Notes: generated from the letters alone by a model not told the origin. A stretch of 64,000 nt of DNA from Actinomycetota bacterium (GCA_005885405.1 VAYN01000005.1:9819-73818), one strand, 5' to 3'; positions 9,250 to 61,853 are shown, counted from the stretch's first letter. Numbers and translations are program-made.

Positions 9250-11247
9250 TCAGGTACCCGCCGTCATCCCGTCCAAGTCGCGCCGGAGCTCCTTCAGCTC
9301 GTCGCGGATCCGTCCCGCCTCCTCGAAACGGAGCTCGTCGGCGGCGGCGAGCATCTCCTCCTCGAGGCCGACGATCGTCTTCTCCAGCTCCTCGGGGGTG
9401 GCGAATTCCTCGGCTCGGCGGCGACGACGCTTGCGCGGCGCCCGGTCCTCCATCGCCAGGAAGTCGGACATCTCGGAGATGCCTTTGCGGACGGTCTCCG
9501 GCGTGATCCCGTGCTCCTCGTTGTAAGCGAGCTGAATCGCGCGGCGCCGGTCGGTCTCCCGCATCGCCGCCCGCATCGCGTCGGTCTCCTTGTCGGCGTA
9601 CATCACCACCCGCCCGTTGACGTTGCGGGCCGCGCGGCCGATCGTCTGCACAAGGCTCGTCTCCCCGCGCAGGAAGCCCTCCTTGTCGGCGTCGAGGATC
9701 GCCACCAGCGAGACCTCGGGCAGGTCGAGGCCCTCGCGCAGGAGGTTGACGCCGACGAGGACGTCGTACTCGCCCAGCCGCAGCTCGCGGATGATCTGAA
9801 TTCGTTCCAGGGTGTCGACCTCGGAGTGCAGGTAGCGGACCTTGACCCCGTACTCGAGCAGGTAGGCGGTCAGGTCCTCCGCCATTTTCTTCGTCAGCGT
9901 CGTTACCAGGGTGCGCTCTTTCTTCTCCGCCACGCGCTTGACCTCGTTCATCAGGTCGTCGATCTGGTTCCTCGTCTCCCGCAGCTCGATCTCGGGGTCG
10001 ACGATCCCGGTCGGGCGGACGATCTGCTCGACGGTGCGGCTCGCTTCGGCTCGCTCGAACGGCCCCGGCGTCGCCGAGACCATCACCAGCTGGTTCACCC
10101 GCTGCATGAACTCGTCGAATTTGAGCGGCCGGTTGTCCATCGCCGAGGGCAAGCGGAAGCCGAAGTCGACCAACGACCGCTTCCGGGACTGGTCGCCCTC
10201 GTACATGCCGCCGATCTGCGGGATCGTCTGGTGGGACTCGTCGACGAAGCAGACGAAGTCGTCGGGGAAGTAGTCGATCAGCGTGTGCGGCGGGCTGCCT
10301 GCGGGCCGGCCGTCGAGGATCCGGGAGTAGTTCTCGATCCCCGAGGTGAAGCCGAGCTCCTTGATCATCTCGAGGTCGTACATCGTCCGCTGCCGCAGCC
10401 GGTGCGCCTCCAGCTGTTTGCCTTCGGCTTCCAGCTCCTGGGTGCGGGATTCCAGTTCGGCGCGGATCTCGTCGACGGCGCGATCCACCGTCTCGTCTTT
10501 GGTCACGTAGTGCGAGGCCGGCCAGACGGAGACGTGGTCGATCACGTCGAGCACCTCGCCGGTCAGCGGGTCGAAATGCTGGATGCCCTCGATCTCGTCG
10601 CCGAAGAGGGCGATCCGGTAAGCGGACTCGGCGTAGGAGGGCATGATCTCCAGGACCTCGCCGCGAACCCGGAAGGCGCCGCGCCCCAGCACCTGGTCGT
10701 TGCGCTGATACTGCATCTTCACCAGCTTGCGGAGGACGTCGTCGCGGTCGATTTCGGCGCCGACTTTGAAGAGCTGCATTTTTTCGTTGTAGACCTGGGG
10801 CGAGCCGATCCCGTAGATGCAGGAGACCGAGGCGACGATGATCACGTCGCGGCGGGCGAAGAGGGCGGCGGTGGCGGCGTGGCGGAGTCGGTCGATCTCG
10901 TCGTTGATCGAGGAGTCCTTCTCGATGTAGAGGTCCTGCGCGGGGACGTAGGCCTCGGGCTGGTAGTAGTCGTAGTAGGAGACGAAGTACTCGACCGAGT
11001 TCTCCGGGAAGAACTCGCGGAACTCGTTGCAGAGCTGCGCCGCCAGCGTCTTGTTGTGGGCGATCACCAGCGAGGGCCGCTGCACCTCGGCGATCGTCGC
11101 CGCCATCGTGAAGGTCTTGCCGGTGCCGGTGGCACCGAGCAGGGTCTGGAAGCGTTCGCCCTCGCGCAGCCCCTCCGCGAGCCCGGCGATCGCCTTCGGT
11201 TGGTCCGCCGTCGGGGTGTAGGCGCGGTTCAGCTTGAAATCAGGCAC
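9250..11247 (-). CDS. uvrB: excinuclease ABC subunit B
   Basis: 665 aa with helicase motifs ([12 protein letters not shown]) and a C-terminal UVR domain ([21 protein letters not shown]). Confidence 0.97.
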
Positions 11248-12565: not shown

Positions 12566-13880
12566 AGGTCAACCCTCCGCGAGAGCGCGATCGGGAAGAG
12601 AGCGATCAGCCCGAGCAGGGCGGCGAGGATGAACGAGGTGCTGAAAGCATGGGTGGCGCCGCGGTCGAGCTGATCCTGCAGTTCGCCCTGCAGCTGTTCG
12701 ACTTCGGACCGCTCGCCTGGGTCGCTCGGCTTCGGCTCGAAGGCCGGTCCGATCGTCGGCACTTTGCCGCGCTCGTCGTCCAGTCGTTCGCTCACCTTTT
12801 CCGCCAGGTCGAGCTTCAGCAGCGGGTTGACCGAGGAATCGAGAATGACCGCGGTGCCGGCGTTGATCGCGTCGTGGCGCTGCTCTTCGATGTCGGCGGT
12901 GAAGATCGGCGTCAGCACCAGCAGGCCGATCACGACGCCGGCGTGGCGGGAGGAGATCGTCCAACCACCGTGGATCGCCTGTGGCGCCCTCCCCCCCAGC
13001 GCCGTCTCGGTCAGCGCCGAGAGCACCAGCGCCAGCCCGATCCCGACCAGGATCTGCGGCGGTACCGTCAGCGCGATCGTCGCCTTCGGCAGGAAGGCGA
13101 GCCCGGCAAGCCCGCCGGAGACGAGGATGGCCCCCGCCGCCGCTCGCGAGCGCGCATCGGGGACGAGCTCGGCGAGCTTGCGGCTGAGAACCGCCGCTAG
13201 CGGCATCACCGAGACGACGAGGGCAGCTTCGATCGGGCTCAGGCGCCAGCCTTCGATCAGCAGCAGCACGAGCAGGAAAAGCGCGGCGGCGATCGCCGCC
13301 GAGACCATCGCCAGGGCGAGGTTCGCCCAGAGGTGCGGCCGCCCGGTCTGGCGCACCTCCCCCTCAATGATCCCGGTCGCCATCTCGTCCTTGGCGACGG
13401 CGAAGATCGGCACCGCGGCGACCAGCGCCACCGGCACCTGGAGGAGGAAGACCGACTGCCAGGAGACGAGCTCGGTAAGGAAGCCGCCGAGCGCGGGTCC
13501 GAGGGCGGCCCCGGTGGCGCCGGCGCTGGCCCAGACCGCCGCCGCCCGGCGCTCTGAGCCGACCGTCGCCGGCAGCAACTCCAGCGCCGCCGTCACCGCC
13601 AGGGCGCCGCCGAGCGCCTGCACGCAGCGGGCGACGATCAGGGGAGCCCGACCGCGGCCGAGCGCCCGGGCCCGACCCGTCGCGCCAGCAACGCCGCCGG
13701 CACCGCCGCCAGCGCGATCACGAGGTTGAAGGAGACGAGGACCCAGGTGACACCGGAGACGCTCGTGTCCAGTTCCCGGTAGATCTCGGGCAGGGCGAGG
13801 ACGACGATCGAGGAGTCGGCGAGGACGAGGCCGACCGCGAGCGCGAGGGCGGCGACGCGGGGCCTAGGGGATTGAGGCAT
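12562..13880 (-). pseudogene. MFS (DHA2/EmrB-like) transporter with interrupted reading frame
   Basis: The N-terminal 80-aa ORF (13638..13880; LADSSIVVLALPEIYRELDTSVSGVTWVLVSFNL covers TM1-2) and the 353-aa ORF (12562..13623; begins at the TM4 motif LIVARCVQALGGA) are in different frames. The segment expected for TM3 is missing. Confidence 0.7.
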
Positions 13881-23058: not shown

Positions 23059-23979
23059 CTAGCCGCGCGAGGCGCCGGACACCGCCAGCGCCACCGCAAT
23101 GTCCGCAGCAACCCGATCCGGCTCGCTCTCCAGCTGCGTGTCGTCGTAGCGGAGAGCGGTGTAGCCGGCAGAGCGGAGGTCGAGGTCGCGGGCGTGGTCG
23201 TCTTGGAAGGCGACGGAGCCGCGGTGGTAGGTCCAGAAGTCGGTCTCGACTACGACTCTCTGGTCACGCCAGAGGAAATCCACGGTCCAGCGGCCCAGCT
23301 TGACGTTGACCTCCGGGTGCGGGAGGCCGTAGCGGTGGACGATGTCGAGGAAGAGGGTCTCGAGGTCTGAGCGGGTGCGGTCGGTGGCCAGGTGCTCGAG
23401 GCGGTAGCCCTTGAGCTCGGCCTGGCGGGTGGCGCGACGGAGGAGGTGGGGCTCGAGGAATGAGGTGCTTCGGAGATCTTCGAGGGTGCGGGCGACGGTC
23501 GTGACCGGGATGTTGTGGCGGTGGGTGACTAGGAGCCTTCCCCGTCGCCCTCCTTCTTGCTGCGAGTAGGAGGGCGACGGGGAAGGCTCTGGGTGCGGAT
23601 TGAGGGAGGGGGTGCGATGAAGGTGGATGCCGGGCCGGCGGGAGCGACCCGAGGCGGATGGGACGGAAATGTGGACGGGGCCGTCGATCGGCTTCAGGAG
23701 CTCCCAGAGGACCGCGGCGGAGACGTGGCTCAAGACGGCGCCTGGGCCGCAGGCGAGCACCGCCGCCATGAAGCGCCCGTGGAGGCTCAGGCCGCGGTGC
23801 CCGACGGCGTAGACGCCGCGGTAAATGCGATGGAGGCGCCCGTTTCGCGAGCGTTCCGAGATCGCCATCCGTCCCATTCCCACGGCCGCTAGCTGCTTCG
23901 CCGTCACTACCCCGTGCTGTCCAGCGGCGATCCGAGAAACCTCGGCATCGGGCGTGTCGACTTTGTAAGGCATAGCCAT
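23059..23979 (-). CDS. AbiEi_4-like N-terminal domain plus DUF559 (Vsr-like endonuclease fold) protein
   Basis: The N-terminus (GVVTAKQLAAVGMGRMAISERSRNGRLHRIYRGVYAV) and the C-terminus (LPHPEVNVKLGRWTVDFLWRDQRVVVETDFWTYH) match the widespread actinobacterial DUF559 family. It carries an in-frame hairpin insertion at 23533..23589. Confidence 0.75.
   Translation of the reverse strand: MAMPYKVDTPDAEVSRIAAGQHGVVTAKQLAAVGMGRMAISERSRNGRLHRIYRGVYAVGHRGLSLHGRFMAAVLACGPGAVLSHVSAAVLWELLKPIDGPVHISVPSASGRSRRPGIHLHRTPSLNPHPEPSPSPSYSQQEGGRRGRLLVTHRHNIPVTTVARTLEDLRSTSFLEPHLLRRATRQAELKGYRLEHLATDRTRSDLETLFLDIVHRYGLPHPEVNVKLGRWTVDFLWRDQRVVVETDFWTYHRGSVAFQDDHARDLDLRSAGYTALRYDDTQLESEPDRVAADIAVALAVSGASRG
23533..23589. 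repeat. perfect 22-bp-stem / 13-nt-loop palindrome inside the DUF559 coding sequence
   Basis: gagccttccccgtcgccctcct-tcttgctgcgagt-aggagggcgacggggaaggctc. It is 57 nt, a multiple of 3, and the ORF stays open. It encodes roughly PSPSPSYSQQEGGRRGR. Confidence 0.85.
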
Positions 23980-24012
23980 ACAAAGTCGACAGGGACCCTG
24001 GGTTCTCCCCCC

Positions 24013-31041: not shown

Positions 31042-32412
31042 GTGAGCCTGAGACCCCGCCCGGCGCTGGCGGTCGCGGCGGCGCTGGTTCTGGCCGCCGC
31101 TTCCCTCACCCTCCCCTACCACCCGGTCTACGACCCCTGGGCCTGGCTCGTCTGGGGCCGGGAGCTGTTTCACGGCGCCTTCGAGACCGCGGCGGGGCCG
31201 TCTTGGAAGCCGCTGCCGGTCCTCGTCGACGCGCCGCTCTCGCTGCTCGGCGACGCGGCCCCGCAGGCGTGGCTGCTGGTCGCCCGCACCGGCTGGTTCA
31301 GCGCCGCCTTCCTGGCCGGCATGCTGGCCTGGCGCTTGAGCGGCAGGGAGACGGGCCGCTGGCGCTGGGTCGCGGCGGCGATCGCGGCGGCCTCGGTGGC
31401 GCTGACCGCCGACTCCTTCACGCCGCCGCTGCGCCAGTTCACCGGCGGCCTCTCCGAGCCGCTGCTGGTGGCGCTGGTCCTGGGAGCGATCTGGGCCGCG
31501 CTCGACGAGCGCCGCGGTTGGGTACTGGGGCTGGGAACGGCGGCGGCATTGCTGCGCCCGGAAGTCTGGCCCTTCCTCGCCCTTTGGGCCTACTTCGCGA
31601 GCCGCGGCCGGCCCCAACTGCGAGCCGCCGCGATCGCCTGCGCGATCCTCATCCCCTTCGCCTGGTTCGTCCCCGACATTGTCGGCGCCGGGACGCCGTT
31701 AGAGGGCGGCGAGACGGCGCGCGCCGGCGGCATCGAGCCCCTCGATGGCCTTGACGTCTTGGGACGAGCCTTAGCCGCCCCCCTCCTGGCCTGCTGGATC
31801 GGCCTCGGCGTCTTGCTCTGGCGAGAACGAAGCGACCTGGAGCAAACAATGAAGATCCTCCTGTCGGGCGCCGCCGCCTGGATCCTCCTCGTCGCCGTAA
31901 TGGCGATCGTCGGCTTCGCCGGCCTCCCCCGCTTCCTCGCCCCCGCCACCGCGATCGTCGCCGTCCTTGGCAGCGTCGGTGTCGCCCGCGCCGCCGCAGG
32001 GTGTGGTCGAGCTTCGTGGCGCTATCCGCCACAAAGCTCAATTACACCCCTTCGGGGACTGGTTGCGGCCACGCTCCTCCTCGCCGCCTTCGGCGTCGGC
32101 TGGCGCGTCGCCCAGATCCCCGATGACGTCCGCGTCGTCGAGCGCCAGACCAGCTCGATTGACCATCTCTTCGACCTCGTCGAGAAGACCGGCGACACGC
32201 GGCTGCTCTCTTGCCAGGGTTACGTGCGGATGACGCGGGTGCGCGAGCAGACCGCGCTGGCCTGGAAGCTCGATGAGCCGATCTCCTCCGTAGCAATCCG
32301 GCGACTTCCTGAATTCGGCGTCGCTCTCTCGACCAAACCGCTGCCGGGCGGGGACGTGATCGCGCACGCCGGCGGCTGGCGCGCGACCCGCTTCCCCTGC
32401 CCTACTCGCTGA
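31042..32412 (+). CDS. polytopic membrane protein, GT-C-glycosyltransferase-like (family not verified)
   Basis: 456 aa with about 10 TM segments plus a soluble C-terminal domain, sited in a glycosyltransferase neighbourhood. It contains the family-A palindrome in-frame. Confidence 0.55.
   Translation: MSLRPRPALAVAAALVLAAASLTLPYHPVYDPWAWLVWGRELFHGAFETAAGPSWKPLPVLVDAPLSLLGDAAPQAWLLVARTGWFSAAFLAGMLAWRLSGRETGRWRWVAAAIAAASVALTADSFTPPLRQFTGGLSEPLLVALVLGAIWAALDERRGWVLGLGTAAALLRPEVWPFLALWAYFASRGRPQLRAAAIACAILIPFAWFVPDIVGAGTPLEGGETARAGGIEPLDGLDVLGRALAAPLLACWIGLGVLLWRERSDLEQTMKILLSGAAAWILLVAVMAIVGFAGLPRFLAPATAIVAVLGSVGVARAAAGCGRASWRYPPQSSITPLRGLVAATLLLAAFGVGWRVAQIPDDVRVVERQTSSIDHLFDLVEKTGDTRLLSCQGYVRMTRVREQTALAWKLDEPISSVAIRRLPEFGVALSTKPLPGGDVIAHAGGWRATRFPCPTR
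32001..32049. repeat. family-A palindromic element, copy A1 (in-frame in 31042..32412)
   Basis: gtgtggtcgagcttcgtggcgctatccgccacaaagctcaattacaccc. It is 45/49 identical to 60316..60364 on the same strand. Terminal inverted arms are about 14 bp. Confidence 0.85.
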
Positions 32413-34867: not shown

Positions 34868-35826
34868 TGAGGATCGGGATTGCCGGCTGCGGCCGGATCG
34901 CCGAACGCGGCTACGTGCCGGCGGCGCTGGCGGCGGAGGGGGTGACGATCGCCGGCTTCGCCGACCCCGACGGCGAGCGGCTCGATCGCTGTCGGCGGCT
35001 TTGGGCGGAGGAGGGTGACGAGGCTCCAGGCTTTGCCGACGTCGCCTCGCTGCTCGCGTCGGTCGCGGTCGACCTGCTCGTCGTCTCGGCACCCGCCGAC
35101 CATCACGAAGCACTGGCGGCAGAGGCGGCCGCGGCTGGAGTCAGGTCCTTTGTCGAGAAGCCGCCCGCTCCCGACCTCGAGGGCGCGCGCCGCCTGGCAG
35201 ACCTCGACCCGCAACCCCTCATCGCCTTCAACCGCCGTTTCCTCCAGGGCGCCGAGCTGCGCGACTCGATCCCCGCCGAAGGATGGCTGGAGCTCGACCT
35301 GGAGTTGCGCTTCCGCCGCGACAGCTGGGGCGCCCACGAGGCGCACGACGAGGCACTCCTCGATGCCGGCATCCATCTGATTGACCTCGCCTGCTTCCTC
35401 ACCGATTCGGCCCCGATCGCCGTCCGCGGCGCAGAGGTGAAACACGAGCGGGCGGACCTGGAGGTGGAGCTCGCCCGGGGCCGCGCCCGGATCAGCTGCG
35501 CGACGGATCGATCGCACCGCGAGGCGATCAGGGTCACCGACCGCTCTGGAAGGACACTGGCCCGGTCGCATTGGGGCGGCATCGGCGGCCGCCTCGCGGG
35601 TCTGATCGGGAGGCCCGACCCACTGGTCGTTTCCCTGCAACGTCAGCTAGAGGCGGTGGGGGTGTCCCTGATGGACCCTCCCCATTTTGTCCAGCAGGGA
35701 TACCCCCATCGCCTCGCCACAGCAGCCGATGGCGTCGCCGCGTTGGCTGTTGTCGAGGCAGCACGTCGTTCCGCTGAACTGAACGGCGCCGAGGTCACCG
35801 TCGAGCAGGCCGAGGCCACCGCGTGA
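34867..35826 (+). CDS. Gfo/Idh/MocA-family NAD(P)-dependent oxidoreductase
   Basis: MRIGIAGCGRIAERGYVPAL... Rossmann N-terminus. The ATG overlaps the upstream stop (ATGA). Confidence 0.8.
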   Translation: MRIGIAGCGRIAERGYVPAALAAEGVTIAGFADPDGERLDRCRRLWAEEGDEAPGFADVASLLASVAVDLLVVSAPADHHEALAAEAAAAGVRSFVEKPPAPDLEGARRLADLDPQPLIAFNRRFLQGAELRDSIPAEGWLELDLELRFRRDSWGAHEAHDEALLDAGIHLIDLACFLTDSAPIAVRGAEVKHERADLEVELARGRARISCATDRSHREAIRVTDRSGRTLARSHWGGIGGRLAGLIGRPDPLVVSLQRQLEAVGVSLMDPPHFVQQGYPHRLATAADGVAALAVVEAARRSAELNGAEVTVEQAEATA

Positions 35827-37322
35827 TCGCCGTCATCCAGTTCGACGCCGCCAGTGCCCGCCTGCTGGAACGGCTCGGGGACGAAGGCCGCCTGCCAAAC
35901 CTGGAGGCGCTGCAGGCGCGGGGAACCCGCATCGCTCTGGAGACCCCTGCCGAACACTTCCCCGCCAGCGCCTATCAGGACCTCTACCGCGGAGTCGAGG
36001 TCGGCGACCACGGGCTCTTCTACCCCTTCCAGTGGGCCGGCGACGACCAGCGGGTGCGGCTGGCAGGCACCTTCGAGGCGCCGCCACCGATCTGGGACCG
36101 CCTCGGCCGCGCCGGCCGCAGCACCCTCGCAATCGACCCTTACGAGTGCCACCGACCAGGGGAGGCACGGGGGGAGCTCTTCGACGGCTGGGGGATGCGG
36201 GAGCGGGTGGTGCTCGAGCGCTGGTCGGTGCCGGACGGAGCTGACCGCGGGCCGCGCCGTCGCCACGGCCGTCCGCCCGATGTCACCGAGGTCTTCGGCG
36301 CGCAAACGCCAAAGGAGCTGCGCCAACTGCGCGAGCGCTTCCTGGCGGCGCCCAAGCGCGTCGCCGACCTCGCGATCGAGCGCCTGCGCGAGCGCGATTT
36401 CGACCTCGCCTGGATCGTCTTCGCCGCCCCCCACCTCGCCGGCCACCGCCTCTGGGGAGATGACGCCCTCACCGAGATCTACGAGGAGGTCGACGCCCAG
36501 CTCGGCCGCGTCCTCGAGGCGCTGGCGGACGACTGCGACGTGATCGCCTGCTCAGTCTTGGGCATGGATGAGAACACCAGCCGAGCCGACCTCCTGCCGG
36601 AGATGCTCTCAGCCGTCCTAGCCGGCCCCAGGCAAAGTCGTGGTTCCTTAGTCCGGAATAACAGGACAAAGGAACCACGGAACTCGGAGGACTCCGACTC
36701 TGGGGCGATATGGCGGCTTCGCGGGGCGCTCTCGGGGCGGATGCGGGCCCGGATTGCCGCCGCGATGCCGGACCGGATGGCGCTGGAGCTGACGGCGCGG
36801 CTGGAGCTTCGCGGCATCGACTGGAGCTCGACCCGCGCCTTCGCCCACCCGGCCGACAACCAGGGCTACATCCGCTTCAACCGCACCGGGCGCGAGCGCG
36901 ACGGGATCGTTGGCAGCGGCGAGGCGGAGGAGCTGGCGGCGCAGATCCGCGAGGGCCTACTCGACTTCCGCGACCCCGACGGACAGCCGGCGGTGACTGC
37001 GGTCGACGCCGTCAGCGAGCGTTGGCATGGAGCCGCGGCCGACCGCCTCCCCGACCTCGTCGTCCGCTGGCGCCCCACCTCCTCGGTCGCCCTCGACGCG
37101 GTCCACTCCCCCAGCTTCGGCACCGTGCGCCGCCACGGCGCCGGCAGCGGCCGCACCGGCAACCACACCGACGGCGACGCCTGGGCGATCCTCGCCCCCC
37201 GCAGCGCCCGCGTCCGCGACCTGGGGCGCCAGGCAAAGGTCACCGACATCACCGCCACGGTCGCTGCCGCGAGCGACGTACCGCTCGAAGGTCTCAGCGG
37301 CGAGCCGCTCCTGCAGCGGTAG
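35823..37322 (+). CDS. alkaline-phosphatase-superfamily protein (nucleotide pyrophosphatase/phosphodiesterase-like, divergent)
   Basis: The N-terminus (IQFDAAS...LPNLEAL...FPASAYQDLYRGVEVGDHG) and C-terminus (GNHTDGDAWAI) resemble PF01663-type enzymes. The central SDHG-like motif is degenerate. It contains the family-B palindrome in-frame. Confidence 0.6.
   Translation: MIAVIQFDAASARLLERLGDEGRLPNLEALQARGTRIALETPAEHFPASAYQDLYRGVEVGDHGLFYPFQWAGDDQRVRLAGTFEAPPPIWDRLGRAGRSTLAIDPYECHRPGEARGELFDGWGMRERVVLERWSVPDGADRGPRRRHGRPPDVTEVFGAQTPKELRQLRERFLAAPKRVADLAIERLRERDFDLAWIVFAAPHLAGHRLWGDDALTEIYEEVDAQLGRVLEALADDCDVIACSVLGMDENTSRADLLPEMLSAVLAGPRQSRGSLVRNNRTKEPRNSEDSDSGAIWRLRGALSGRMRARIAAAMPDRMALELTARLELRGIDWSSTRAFAHPADNQGYIRFNRTGRERDGIVGSGEAEELAAQIREGLLDFRDPDGQPAVTAVDAVSERWHGAAADRLPDLVVRWRPTSSVALDAVHSPSFGTVRRHGAGSGRTGNHTDGDAWAILAPRSARVRDLGRQAKVTDITATVAAASDVPLEGLSGEPLLQR
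36637..36683. repeat. family-B palindromic element, copy B1 (in-frame in 35823..37322)
   Basis: gtcgtggttccttagtccggaataacaggacaaaggaaccacggaac. Over 45 nt it is 41/45 identical to the reverse complement of 60543..60591. It forms a local low-GC pocket. Confidence 0.85.
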
Positions 37323-43229: not shown

Positions 43230-43250
43230 AGAGCCAGCGTACGCGAAGAA

Positions 43251-43281
43251 GGGGCTGGACCAAGGAGAGGAGTCCAGCCCC
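43251..43281 (-). terminator. stem-loop downstream of the htrA-like gene (weak intrinsic terminator candidate)
   Basis: ggggctgga / tccagcccc 9-bp stem with a 13-nt loop. On the minus strand it is followed by ttcttcgc, which is a poor U-tract. Confidence 0.4.
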
Positions 43282-43288
43282 GTCTGCG

Positions 43289-44497
43289 CTATTCGGAGGG
43301 ACCTTGCGGCTGCGTCCCCAGGGTGACCTCGGCGGTCTTCTCGTTACCGTCGCGGAGGAGGGTGAGTTGAAGTTCGTCTCCGGGCTCGTGGCCCTGGATG
43401 ATTTCGACGAGTTCGTCCATCGTCTTCAGCGTCTTGCCGTCGACCTCGGTGATGATGTCGCCGCCGAGCCGGACTTCTTCGCCGTTGATCTGCGCTTCGG
43501 TACCACCTGCTTCGATTCCGGCCTTGTCGGCAGGCCCGTCCTTGACCACCGACTGGACGATCACGCCTTCGTCGACCGGAAGGTTCAGCGCCTTGGCAAG
43601 TTCAGCCGTGATCGTGCCACCGCTGATGCCGATGAAGGCGTGTTCGACTTCGCCCGTCGTCTTCAGCTGCTCGATCTCGGCGCGGACCGTGTCGATCGGG
43701 ATCGCGAAACCGATGCCGACGTTGCCGTTGCCGCCGCCACCGGTGGCGATCTGGGCGTTAATCCCGATCACCGCCCCTTCGGCGTTGATCAGGGGCCCGC
43801 CCGAGTTGCCGGGATTGATCGCGGCATCGGTCTGGATCACGTGGGAAATGGAGAAGCCGTTGGGAGCTTGGATGTTGCGCTGCACCGCCGAGACGATGCC
43901 GCTGGTGACGGTGCGGTCGAGGCCGAACGGGTTGCCGATCGCGACCACCGGGTCGCCGACTTCCATCTCGGCGGAGCGTCCCAGCGTCAGCGGGTGGAAG
44001 GCCTTCTTCGGGGCGTCGACCTTGAGCAGGGCGACATCGGTGCCGGGATCAGCTCCGACCACTTCAGCGTCGTAGTTCGTTTCGGAGTCGCCGAGTTTCA
44101 CCGTCACCTTGCTGGCGCCTTCGATCACATGGTTGTTGGTCAGAACGTGCCCTTCTTCGTCGATCACGAAGCCCGAGCCGGTAGCGGTGCCGCCGCCTTC
44201 AGGTTCGACTTCGCCGAAAGGGCTGAAGCTTTCGGTTTCCGGCGCTTCGATCTGGGATTCGATGAAGGCCACCCCTTCGCCGTCGGTCTTGTAGATCTGG
44301 TTGACGACGTTGGTGTCACCGTCGCCCGAGCTGTCCTTAACCGGCGCCGTCAGTGGCGCGGCGACGGTCGTAGTCGAACCTCCATCGGACTCGATCCAAC
44401 CTGCGGCGATTGCGATAAAGCCGAAGACGGCGACGACTAGGCCGCCGAGCAGGGCGGAGAAGAACGGGCTGCGGAGGTTCTGCTTGGGCTTGGACAT
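43289..44497 (-). CDS. HtrA/DegP-family serine protease (trypsin-like S1C domain plus PDZ), membrane-anchored
   Basis: N-terminal TM, catalytic HVLTNNHV...D...GNSGGPL, and a C-terminal PDZ domain. Confidence 0.9.
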   Translation of the reverse strand: MSKPKQNLRSPFFSALLGGLVVAVFGFIAIAAGWIESDGGSTTTVAAPLTAPVKDSSGDGDTNVVNQIYKTDGEGVAFIESQIEAPETESFSPFGEVEPEGGGTATGSGFVIDEEGHVLTNNHVIEGASKVTVKLGDSETNYDAEVVGADPGTDVALLKVDAPKKAFHPLTLGRSAEMEVGDPVVAIGNPFGLDRTVTSGIVSAVQRNIQAPNGFSISHVIQTDAAINPGNSGGPLINAEGAVIGINAQIATGGGGNGNVGIGFAIPIDTVRAEIEQLKTTGEVEHAFIGISGGTITAELAKALNLPVDEGVIVQSVVKDGPADKAGIEAGGTEAQINGEEVRLGGDIITEVDGKTLKTMDELVEIIQGHEPGDELQLTLLRDGNEKTAEVTLGTQPQGPSE

Positions 44498-59669: not shown

Positions 59670-59720
59670 GGGCGGGGGATGAGTATGAGGGACGGGGGTG
59701 GTTGGCGCGCGGGTCCCGTC

Positions 59721-59801
59721 GGGGGGTCCGGGGGTCCATCTCCAGACACATCTCGCCTATGGCTCATGTTGAGTGTCTGGCGACGAACCCCCGGACCCCC
59801 C
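59721..59801. repeat. 81-nt nested palindrome in the intergenic region (15-bp outer arms, 8-bp inner arms)
   Basis: Outer arms are ggggggtccgggggt (59721..59735) and acccccggacccccc (59787..59801). Inner arms are ccagacac (59742..59749) and gtgtctgg (59773..59780). Confidence 0.75.
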
Positions 59802-59822
59802 GCCACCCGCGCGAGAGGCCGC

Positions 59823-61853
59823 CTAGCTACACCCCGAGGGACCGAGGTTGGTGGGCAGTTGGAGGACTGCCGTGGGAGGCTGTTTCAAGATGAGTTTGCC
59901 TCCCATGCGCTCGATCCACTTGGCTGCGGGTGGGTATGGAGGCTTGCCGGGTTCCAGACGGTCGCGGGTGGCTACTGCGTAGTCGTAGTCGCCCTCTTTG
60001 AGTAGCTGGAGGTACTGCTCGCAGGTGGTTGGGGCCTCGAAGCCGCCGTGGGGCTGCTCGATGCCTAGGTACTGGACGTGGTTGGAGAGGTCGGTGCCGA
60101 AGAGGGGGTACTGGCGGGTGCTGGTGGTGGCGATGCGGGCGTCGGAGACCTCGCGCGCCCAGGCGAAAGCCGCGTTGAGGCCTGGGGCCGAGGTGAAGCT
60201 CGGGTCCTCGTACCGGCCCTCCAGGTAGTGGCGCTGGACGGGGTAACCGACCGCGATCGCCAGCAGGAGCGCCGCGGCTCCACCCGCGATAGCCCATTGA
60301 CCGCCTCTCCGCGGAGTGTGGTTGAGCTTCGTGGCGCTATCCGCCCCAAAGCTCAACCACACCCGGAGGCGGGGGGCCGTTGGCAGCAGGGCGAGGCCGA
60401 GGACCAGGGCCGGGGCGAGGTAGCGGAGACCGGACTCGAAGCCACGCGGCATCCCGTCCGGACCCGAGGCCGACGTCGGCGCCACCAGCCACGCCAGCGC
60501 CGTCGCCAAACCCACTGCGCCCGCCAGCGCCAGCGTCAAATCGTTCCGTGGTTCCTTTGTCCTGATATCCCGGACAAAAGAACCACGGAACTGGACGACG
60601 GCGAGGATCAGGCCGGCCAAGGCGGCGGCGAGCAGGAGCGGCCAGAGGAGCCAGAGGCCGTCGTGGAGACCAGGGAGGAACCAGTCCGACCAGACGCTGC
60701 CGTCGCTGAGGTAGCCGAGGACGGAGTGGGCTTCGCGGCCGCCGAGGGCCTGCTGGGGCGCGGGCAGATCGATCGGACCGAGGTGGCGGATCCAAGGGAG
60801 CGGATTGCCGCTGTGGGCGAGGTTGCGGAGGTACCAGTAGCCGCCGCCGGCCAGTGCGGCCAAGGCCGCGGCGCCAACCGCGCGGCCTTTTAGGCCGCGC
60901 GGCGCGATAAGACCAACGCCGAACACCAGCACCGCCGCCGGCAGGAGGAAGTTGAGCTTCGTCCCCGCCGCCAGCCCCGCGCACAAACCGACCACGAGAT
61001 ACGACCCGAACGCAGTTGTCCCCGGTATGCGGGGATAAGTGCGTTCGGCTGCCGAACCCTCCCAGGCGTTGAGCGCGATCGCCACCGCGCTCAGCAGAAA
61101 GAAGATCCCGACGATGTCGTTCCTCGCCTCCCCCGCCTGGTCCGCCAGCGCCGGAACGCTGAGCGCGATGGCGCCAAGGGCCAGCGACCACGGCGCCACT
61201 CGATAGGGGCGCCCGATACACCAACACGCGACCAAACACCCCACGAACCAGCCGATGTTGAGCAGCGGCGATAGCACGTCCCGGCCGAACGCCAGCATCC
61301 CGGCCGCGTGGAAGATTTCTCCGTTCGCTGGGTAGAACCAGGCCAGGAACTGCGGAGCGATGAAGAGCAGATTCCACGTGTCGCCGCTCTGATAGAACCC
61401 CGCCGCGAACGGCCCGTGGTACCAGGTGCTGTCGAACCCGGTCATCCCCGTCGAAAGCTTCGACTTCGCTTCCCAGGCAAAGAGAGCGACCGCGATCCCG
61501 GCAACAACAAACGCAATCGCCGCCGGGAGGGGGGTCATCCGCACCCTTACCTGCGAAGTAGGGTGCGGATGACCCCCCTCCCCCTCGGACCGCGGCAAGA
61601 ACCTCCAAAGACCGAGCCCCGCTGCACCAACGAGCACCAAGTACGGCACCGGCTCCCACAGGCCGAAGCTCCCGAGCAGCTCCGCGCCCCAAATCAGCAA
61701 CGCCAGCGCCACCACCGCGCTAGCCAGATACGCCGGCGCCCCCTCGAACCGCGGCAACAGCCTCCTGCGCACCGCGTCCCCGCCCAGCCAGGCGAACCCG
61801 CCCAGCAGCAGCACCTCTAGAACGCCCAGCAGGTACCGCCCCGATCCGAGCAT
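59823..61853 (-). CDS. large polytopic membrane protein, GT-C-glycosyltransferase-like (family not verified), carrying three in-frame palindromic insertions
   Basis: 676 aa with more than 12 TM segments plus a soluble C-terminal domain. The insertions are at 60316..60364, 60543..60591 and 61525..61582. Confidence 0.6.
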   Translation of the reverse strand: MLGSGRYLLGVLEVLLLGGFAWLGGDAVRRRLLPRFEGAPAYLASAVVALALLIWGAELLGSFGLWEPVPYLVLVGAAGLGLWRFLPRSEGEGGHPHPTSQVRVRMTPLPAAIAFVVAGIAVALFAWEAKSKLSTGMTGFDSTWYHGPFAAGFYQSGDTWNLLFIAPQFLAWFYPANGEIFHAAGMLAFGRDVLSPLLNIGWFVGCLVACWCIGRPYRVAPWSLALGAIALSVPALADQAGEARNDIVGIFFLLSAVAIALNAWEGSAAERTYPRIPGTTAFGSYLVVGLCAGLAAGTKLNFLLPAAVLVFGVGLIAPRGLKGRAVGAAALAALAGGGYWYLRNLAHSGNPLPWIRHLGPIDLPAPQQALGGREAHSVLGYLSDGSVWSDWFLPGLHDGLWLLWPLLLAAALAGLILAVVQFRGSFVRDIRTKEPRNDLTLALAGAVGLATALAWLVAPTSASGPDGMPRGFESGLRYLAPALVLGLALLPTAPRLRVWLSFGADSATKLNHTPRRGGQWAIAGGAAALLLAIAVGYPVQRHYLEGRYEDPSFTSAPGLNAAFAWAREVSDARIATTSTRQYPLFGTDLSNHVQYLGIEQPHGGFEAPTTCEQYLQLLKEGDYDYAVATRDRLEPGKPPYPPAAKWIERMGGKLILKQPPTAVLQLPTNLGPSGCS
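60316..60364. repeat. family-A palindromic element, copy A2
   Basis: gtgtggttgagcttcgtggcgctatccgccccaaagctcaaccacaccc. Arms are gtgtggttgagctt / aagctcaaccacac. It is translated in the host as SFGADSATKLNHTPRRG. Confidence 0.85.
60543..60591. repeat. family-B palindromic element, copy B2
   Basis: gttccgtggttcctttgtcc-tgatatccc-ggacaaaagaaccacggaac, with 19/20 matching arms. It is translated in the host as FRGSFVRDIRTKEPRN. Confidence 0.85.
61525..61582. repeat. perfect 22-bp-stem / 14-nt-loop palindrome inside the membrane-protein gene
   Basis: ggaggggggtcatccgcaccc... in detail: left arm 61525..61546, loop ttacctgcgaagta, right arm 61561..61582. It is translated as EGEGGHPHPTSQVRVRMTPLP. 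Confidence 0.85.

Follow-up and report, generated by a model that had tools for sequence, protein, structure and literature searches.

A probable dispersed 51-nt palindromic repeat carried in frame by two membrane protein genes of a soil Solirubrobacterales genome

Two membrane protein genes encoded in a 64,000-nt stretch of DNA from an Actinomycetota bacterium (GCA_005885405.1, VAYN01000005.1:9819-73818), here called the window, each carry in frame a copy of the same short palindromic element, referred to as family A. These two sites are probably copies of a 51-nt dispersed stem-loop repeat of soil Solirubrobacterales (Actinomycetota), comparable to the repetitive extragenic palindromes (REP) and the Rickettsia palindromic elements (RPE). 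A covariance model (CM) of the family detects exactly two copies in the 64-kb window, at 31999..32049 (copy 1; 61 bits, E 3e-14) and 60314..60364 (copy 2; 73 bits, E 2e-17), neither of them assigned to a strand. As originally predicted, positions 32001-32049 and 60316-60364 are identical on the + strand at 45 of 49 nucleotides; a degenerate 49-mer matches these two sites alone in the window (0 expected, 100 shuffles), and 18 of the inner 19 nt are shared by both copies.

Nearly the whole unit folds as one hairpin, which for the window copies can be written as GGGTGTGGT(Y)GAGCTT-YGTGGCG-CTATC-CGCCMCA-AAGCTCAAYYACACCC, with a stem of ~23 bp and a loop of 5 nt (CTATC on the + strand in copy 1). 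Folding energies of the window copies range from -34 to -42 kcal/mol, and on both strands the RNA-fold z-scores lie between -6.3 and -8.3. The terminal inverted arms of about 14 bp that had been described for the pair are present and form part of this larger palindrome. Across 56 members of the family pairing halts at the GGG/CCC ends, flank pairing (35%) being at chance level, and the unit is therefore delimited to 51 nt; an extension of the palindrome into the flanks, hinted at by the 33-nt arms of copy 2, was rejected on the same family-wide figure. Since the element is an almost perfect palindrome, only the 5-nt loop and a few mismatches tell one orientation from the other. The opposite orientation of the copies relative to their hosts, stressed in the original prediction, is correct as regards the strands and means little in a near-perfect palindrome whose loop can flip. 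The GC content of family A copies averages ~57% and that of the window is ~69%.

Host gene 1 (31042..32412, + strand) encodes a polytopic membrane protein of 456 aa conserved in Solirubrobacterales, and its neighborhood includes glycosyltransferases. Host gene 2 (59823..61853, - strand), which adjoins murJ, encodes a polytopic membrane protein of 676 aa. Scans of both proteins against Pfam and NCBIfam returned no family. As had been stated, the hosts lie on opposite strands and both open reading frames (ORF) remain open; by sequence comparison they are genuine genes: more than 1,800 homologues exist for each, and those that are named come from metagenome-assembled genomes (MAG) of Solirubrobacterales. 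The exact host proteins were also called in public assemblies, in a soil metagenome scaffold and in an NCBI MAG named 'Actinobacteria bacterium' (E6G51_* locus tags). Annotations of the host 2 N-terminus (61539-61853) disagree, NCBI giving 571 aa (P0004) with the initial Met directly after a further hairpin at 61525-61582 and ENA and JGI giving 676 aa, so that the start site is uncertain; the longer form is favored by the alignment of orthologues.

Copy 1 occupies 17 codons of host 1 (codons 320-336) and is read as GCGRASWRYPPQSSITP, and copy 2 occupies 17 codons of host 2 (codons 497-513) and is read on the - strand as RVWLSFGADSATKLNHT, or (RVWL)SFGADSATKLNHTPRRG with the preceding residues included. 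Because the two hosts translate the same DNA in different frames and from opposite strands, the similarity resides at the DNA level and is not protein paralogy, in agreement with the original prediction. The element of host 1 falls within the loop that separates the helix 297-315 from the next predicted helix (334-352), and in host 2 the residues 497-513 directly precede a predicted helix; the extra 17 residues are thus predicted in both proteins to form short loops adjoining transmembrane (TM) helices.

Further copies, which the original prediction had proposed to search for, are numerous. A pattern of the inner part of the element retrieved five clear members from GTDB species representatives (four Solirubrobacterales/Actinomycetota MAGs). 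A doubtful member from the same genome scan (L007) was set aside, as were two chance matches of the inner pattern in Xanthobacteraceae (L004) and Acidobacteriota (L008), which are devoid of the outer arms. In metagenome contigs, the outer-arm pattern GGTTGAGCTT-N13-25-AAGCTCAACC recovered at least 119 stretches; among the matches listed, about 100 are true family A members, located in contigs of >60% GC from soil metagenomes, and 99 family A copies were classified by context. In viral contigs the arm pattern gave two matches with atypical spacers (13 and 24 nt), which are probably unrelated. The CM detected about 11 extra copies, not belonging to the seed, in 0.69 Mb flanking the seed copies, from which a density of roughly 15-30 copies per Mb, that is, some tens to about a hundred per genome, can be obtained by extrapolation only.

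The family combines a fixed outer part and a variable inner one. The outer stem of 16 bp is near-invariant (GGGTGTGGTTGAGCTT/AAGCTCAACCACACCC), a conservation that is partly imposed and inflated in its apparent level because the metagenome sampling pattern fixed exactly 10+10 nt of the arms; GGGTGT/ACACCC, which lies outside the search pattern, is nevertheless conserved and covarying (pair 10/54: U-A 30, C-G 14). The inner stem of 7 bp is hypervariable between copies and keeps its complementarity, all 7 of its pairs being changed on both sides. The apex consists of a C-G/G-C closing and a 5-nt loop, [G/C]ATA[G/C] or its complement (central ATA/TAT), and the center measures 19 nt in 76 copies and 20 nt in 24. 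Pairing reaches 93% in the outer stem and 81% of the cells in the inner stem, compared with ~38-41% in slid controls, and the covariation score is 0.246 vs 0.138 in shuffles, none of 500 attaining the observed value.

The genomic context of the 99 family A copies was assigned with a gene finder of our own based on GC content at third codon positions (GC3), rather than with a trained caller; it reproduces the genes of the window. Eighteen copies are intragenic, 30 lie downstream of a gene, 8 between convergent genes, 16 upstream of a gene and 5 between divergent genes, 10 have an ambiguous position at a 5' edge and for 12 the context is unknown, which places 69 of the 99 outside genes or at gene edges. 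The ambiguity of the copies at 5' edges arises because the element itself contains GTG and TTG. Downstream copies sit very close to the preceding gene, with a median distance to the stop codon of 6 nt and 38 of 46 within 15 nt. In four copies (L020, L041, L058, L081) the adjacent gene terminates at the in-frame TGA of the element (GGG TGT GGT TGA), and the repeat thereby supplies its last three codons and the stop.

The intragenic copies are spread over about 9-10 different genes, one of which is a paralogue of host 2 (34-36% identity) with the element at a different position. The 51-nt form accounts for 17 of the 18 intragenic copies; the 52-nt form, found in 1/18 of them, represents 23/99 overall (Fisher p=0.06). 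The preferred intragenic reading is the stop-free frame ...VWLSF...KLNHT..., and a third frame, GVVEL...KAQPH, is used in other hosts. In the frame of host 1 the consensus reads GGT TGA, and all five sequenced host 1 copies have GGT CGA; in copy 1 this is a T->C change at element position 10, which removes the stop codon. Intragenic copies are read in a stop-free frame, or a mutation abolishes the TGA of the element. In two loci, family A copies closely enclose single genes of ordinary function, those of a short-chain dehydrogenase and a DUF4442 protein, on both sides, as if the element marked both gene ends; the copies involved are at 13815-13877 and 14711-14773 in L020 and at 704-766, 1252-1314 and 7787-7849 in L097. 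Positions 1381-1840 of L079 hold an intergenic array of at least five variant family A units (GTGGTTGAG[C/G]TTCG...CGAACCTCAACCAC) spaced by ~122 nt, flanked by a gene that encodes a GtrA/DPMS transmembrane domain and one for a class-I tRNA synthetase; the array resembles clusters of REPs of the type of bacterial interspersed mosaic elements (BIME-like).

The history of the two window sites was followed in alignments of 120 orthologous sequences per host (71-89% identity). Most orthologues of both hosts encode a palindrome-derived peptide at the same place, in many cases of family A ('RVWLSF..DS..KLNHT' in host 2 and 'GCGRASSRYPGQSSTTP' in host 1), and the remaining ones have different hairpins at the same sites or none; at the host 1 site a hairpin is present in about 100 of the 120. 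In a neighbor-joining tree of host 1 the element types are partly clade-specific with many switches, and hairpin-free sequences occur in at least six scattered places. One of the host 1 orthologues (L129, 86% identical) lacks exactly 51 nt at the DNA level and provides the insert-free host gene that the original prediction had suggested looking for. Comparison of filled and empty host 1 sites revealed no clear target duplication, at most a 2-nt CA being shared. In another orthologue (L130) the deletion is larger and GGGTGG is left as a remnant, and a third (L132, 88% identity) retains the outer arms around a GGCCTC/GAGGCC inner stem, which typifies another widespread family A subfamily; in host 2 orthologues the junction of PRIR with VWLSF is common and the inner stems differ. 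Sequence alignment thus indicates that the insertions in the window are old, the same sites being occupied in most orthologues across the order. The observation from which this study started is confirmed and its interpretation, that of a selfish in-frame insertion like those of Rickettsia, is partly supported: a dispersed repeat tolerated in frame is what was found, while neither a recent insertion nor a mainly intragenic habit agrees with the data.

Two sets of comparisons bear on how the copies change. Among non-orthologous copies, the inner 19-mers are 70% identical within the same sample and 50% between different samples (0/2000 permutations), the sample labels standing for communities and not for single genomes. 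Together with the replacement of subfamilies, this similarity points to an exchange from copy to copy, which may proceed by conversion or by re-insertion. In two neighboring host 1 orthologues, L135 (CGTCCCG-CTATC-CGGGCCA) and L136 (CTTCCCG-GATAG-CGGGACA), the arms are kept, including the polarity of a C·A mismatch, and the 5-nt loop alone is inverted. Arm homogenization and spacer inversion are signatures of replication template switching in inverted repeats, which the L135/L136 pair matches (PMC8794818, PMC8604942).

We propose that family A would have spread by copying between loci, the candidate movers being a HUH/RAYT-type transposase that recognizes single-strand hairpins, or copy-to-copy conversion. 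A resident copy would remain palindromic at the DNA level through template switching within the hairpin, which would homogenize the arms and invert the loop, and its inner stem could be replaced by conversion from other copies of the same genome. The encoded 17-residue peptide would be a tolerated passenger rather than a selected domain, and intergenic copies probably double as hairpin terminators or stabilizers of mRNA 3' ends.

Several points weigh against this proposal. No mobilizing enzyme was detected with Pfam among 20 genes located near copies or copy pairs (L081, L020, L097, L074, L079 and window neighbors), which comprise only housekeeping enzymes and regulators, some of them bracketed by copies. 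No duplication recurs consistently in the flanks of 56 copies, no target-site duplication is unambiguous, and the ends of the family A consensus carry neither a GTAG nor a CGTC tag. The copy number per genome is an extrapolation, the exact arm pattern under-samples mutated intragenic copies, the within-sample similarity is that of communities, and the empty site of L129 fits insertion and precise deletion alike. Above all, the persistence of hairpins at the same sites exceeds what is expected for a purely selfish, deletion-prone palindrome, and simple selfishness fails to explain their near-universal occupancy; since hairpins persist at both sites in most orthologues, there is room for selection or site-specific re-targeting.

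Family A is not the only hairpin of the window, nor of host 2. In the window, nine hairpins have 16 or more paired positions and no more than 2 mismatches (23533-23589, 23953-23993, 35657-35708, 36639-36679, 43243-43289, 60316-60362, 60543-60591, 61006-61048 and 61523-61584), compared with none in 20 first-order Markov simulations, and several of them have a central ATA/TAT loop like that of family A. Besides copy 2, host 2 contains three in-frame hairpin islands, at 61525-61582, 61006-61048 and 60543-60591 (arms of 23, 19 and 20 nt, respectively); all four lie in short hydrophilic stretches beside a predicted TM helix. The position of the three islands is conserved across orthologues and their peptide sequence covaries, the 61006-61048 site being empty in some.

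The island at 60543..60591 (no strand assigned) represents a second family, B, with arms GTTCCGTGGTTCCTTTGTCC/GGACAAAAGAACCACGGAAC and GTGGTT...TTTGT motifs like those of family A. Family B recurs, with 91% identity over 45 nt and likewise without assigned strand, at 36639..36683, in frame in ORF 35823-37322, which encodes a type I phosphodiesterase domain; the readings in these two unrelated genes are similar (RGSFVRDIRTKEPRN and RGSLVRNNRTKEPRN). Further sites of family B are found at 10864-10914 and 1217-1263 of L109 and at 3911-3966 of L120, and the family scores 25-32 bits with the CM of family A.

Other palindromes of the window were observed in addition. The spacer between the host 2 stop codon and lepA (59720-59802) forms an 83-nt hairpin with 30-nt arms (90% complementary), whose central 42 nt are conserved at 93-95% in L120 and L030, the two loci with host 2 orthologues; the hairpin may serve as a terminator or represent a further element. 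ORF 23059-23979, which encodes AbiEi_4 and DUF559 domains, includes a near-perfect palindrome with 28-nt arms (23533-23589) and, at its 5' end, a hairpin with 17-nt arms and an ATA loop (23955-23991) that has an 89% match in L078.

It is unlikely, but deserves to be weighed first, that the family A hairpin is a selected RNA-level element whose dispersal is secondary. Between genes it would act as an intrinsic (I-shaped, U-tract-poor) terminator or a 3'-end stabilizer, and within genes as an mRNA structure that slows the ribosome after a TM segment or protects the message. The proximity of the downstream copies to stop codons and the AAAAC...GTTTT sequences that flank some family A copies agree with such a role, as does the fact that most orthologues of host 1 and host 2 keep a hairpin at the same loop-coding sites despite sequence turnover, with all four hairpin islands of host 2 adjoining TM helices. 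The stem is kept by covariation, and Watson-Crick pairing is equal in intragenic (86%) and intergenic (85%) copies. A preference of the sense strand for G·U over A·C, the signature expected of an RNA, was sought in family A copies and was not found, G·U mismatches amounting to 34 in sense and 42 in antisense (the latter equivalent to A·C in sense). The orientation of the loop relative to the host or neighboring gene is mixed and can flip at one site. T-runs were found in only a few copies (for instance L013, L072 and L104), with 38 of the 99 copies being downstream or convergent and 18 mid-gene. Rfam 15 gave no match over the whole window at the gathering threshold; when the two host regions were searched at E<=1, the sole matches lay far below threshold and were to models of miRNA precursors, which are simple hairpins. 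The hairpin-free orthologues scattered over the host 1 tree, and the presence of family B in a phosphodiesterase-domain gene, away from both membrane protein hosts, do not favor an RNA function either, and an appearance of selection for pairing can result from arm homogenization through template switching (PMC8794818). From the absence of a G·U bias, the mixed orientation, the equal pairing inside and outside genes and the lack of an Rfam family, the palindromy appears to be held at the DNA level rather than at the RNA level. Selection for a structure that does not depend on orientation may also contribute. For intergenic copies, a role in RNA is compatible with the dispersed-repeat explanation.

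With a slightly smaller chance of being correct, family A may belong to a superfamily of intragenic hairpins (apex CG-[G/C]ATA[G/C]-CG) which occupy fixed loop-coding positions in conserved genes of envelope membrane proteins throughout the order, with four islands in host 2, and which would be re-targeted by a hairpin-recognizing recombinase or selected as an mRNA or DNA structure. This possibility draws support from the near-universal occupancy of the same loop-coding sites and from the presence of several hairpin families in the same genes. If true, this would not be passive selfish DNA but a class of structured in-gene elements not described so far, one conceivable task being to pace membrane insertion during translation.

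Far less credible is the idea of a separate, local origin of the hairpin at every site through replication template switching, nothing moving between loci. Loop inversion and co-variation of the arms are indeed signatures of this process, and several long hairpins of the window have no second copy in about 0.9 Mb examined. For family A, local origin is contradicted because it cannot yield dispersed near-identical copies, fixed arms and shared subfamilies: the same 16-nt outer arm with a spacing of 19/20 nt recurs at more than 90 unrelated loci, including at least nine unrelated genes, the window copies are identical at 45/49 positions and discrete inner-stem subfamilies are common to different loci. 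The least tenable view, in which a selected protein motif (by paralogy or as a convergent peptide) or the double-stranded operator of a dimeric DNA-binding protein accounts for the conserved inverted repeat and its fixed spacing, is contradicted in its first form by the reading of the window copies on opposite strands as unrelated peptides, by the third frame used elsewhere and by the location of most copies outside genes, and is disfavored in its second by a covarying inner stem for which an operator has no need and by mid-gene or post-stop placements not expected of one.

Taken as a dispersed repeat, family A adds a soil lineage of Actinomycetota, abundant, uncultured and of high GC content, to Rickettsia and the few Proteobacteria in which in-frame palindromic 'passenger' DNA was known. 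For annotation, this implies that 17-residue segments in many 'hypothetical' membrane proteins of Solirubrobacterales are derived from a repeat, which inflates their apparent divergence, and that some C-termini and stop codons come from it. The family also constitutes a clean natural data set that can help to tell selection for pairing from mutational homogenization of the arms: its outer stem is fixed, its inner stem covaries, its loop inverts and its subfamilies replace one another at orthologous sites.

Among known systems, family A resembles REPs and REPINs in several traits: it is a short, dispersed, imperfect palindrome, mostly intergenic, with G·T pairs in its stems, genome-specific subfamilies and occasional clusters (L079), and a minority of its copies reside inside ORFs that stay open. 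REPs are mostly separated by no more than about 20 nt from the 3' end of the preceding ORF, to which the median of 6 nt in family A corresponds. Intragenic REPs have been catalogued in frame in several non-rickettsial species, GTAG and CGTC tags mark two large REP superfamilies, and the shorter RPE-4 and RPE-6 were classed with the CGTC REPs (Di Nocera et al., 2013, PMC3733652). Family A differs in its length (51 nt with a 23-bp stem, versus 20-40 nt in REPs), in ends that on examination bear neither tag, in occurring mostly as singletons instead of inverted doublets, in the fixed outer and hypervariable inner stem, in the lack of a RAYT among the 20 genes examined beside its copies, and in its taxon, Actinomycetota (Solirubrobacterales). 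Membership in the RAYT-mobilized REP class is not established, the tag being absent. A full-text literature search retrieved no paper combining REPIN, RAYT and Actinobacteria, and a search for Solirubrobacterales and palindromic elements retrieved nothing relevant.

With RPEs, family A shares the appearance of selfish palindromic DNA lying in frame in open genes and adding a peptide, the existence of intergenic copies and of more than one family per genome. As in RPEs, an in-frame palindromic repeat is found in ORFs that stay open, in about 9-10 genes, and an insert-free orthologue exists (L129, devoid of the 51 nt). RPEs occur in AT-rich, obligate intracellular Alphaproteobacteria, in contrast to a 51-nt element in a genome of 69% GC, and the intragenic sites of family A are common to orthologues across a whole order. 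RPE-1 measures roughly 100-150 bp, and by size, GC content and taxon a sequence homology of family A to RPE-1 to RPE-8 is implausible. Miniature inverted-repeat transposable elements (MITE) such as Correia, ERIC and Nezha are likewise short non-coding repeats with inverted ends that can land in frame and supply stops or terminators; they measure 70-300 bp, however, and have terminal inverted repeats around a non-palindromic core, a target-site duplication and a parent insertion sequence, whereas the family A unit is a single hairpin of 51-52 nt and fits neither the size nor the core of a MITE. Template-switch (quasipalindrome) dynamics resemble family A in the 'compensatory' double changes and in the inversion of the loop at an orthologous site (PMC8794818, PMC8604942); being a local process, template switching explains why palindromy is kept, but not why the same 16-nt arms are found at about 100 loci.

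The original prediction had been aware of no description of the in-frame behavior for high-GC genomes of this kind, which is borne out for the taxon and the sequence family; the behavior itself is not new, because intragenic REPs were already listed for non-rickettsial species (PMC3733652). What is new is the sequence family, its lineage, the 51-nt single hairpin, the combination of a fixed outer and a hypervariable inner stem, and the ATA loop.

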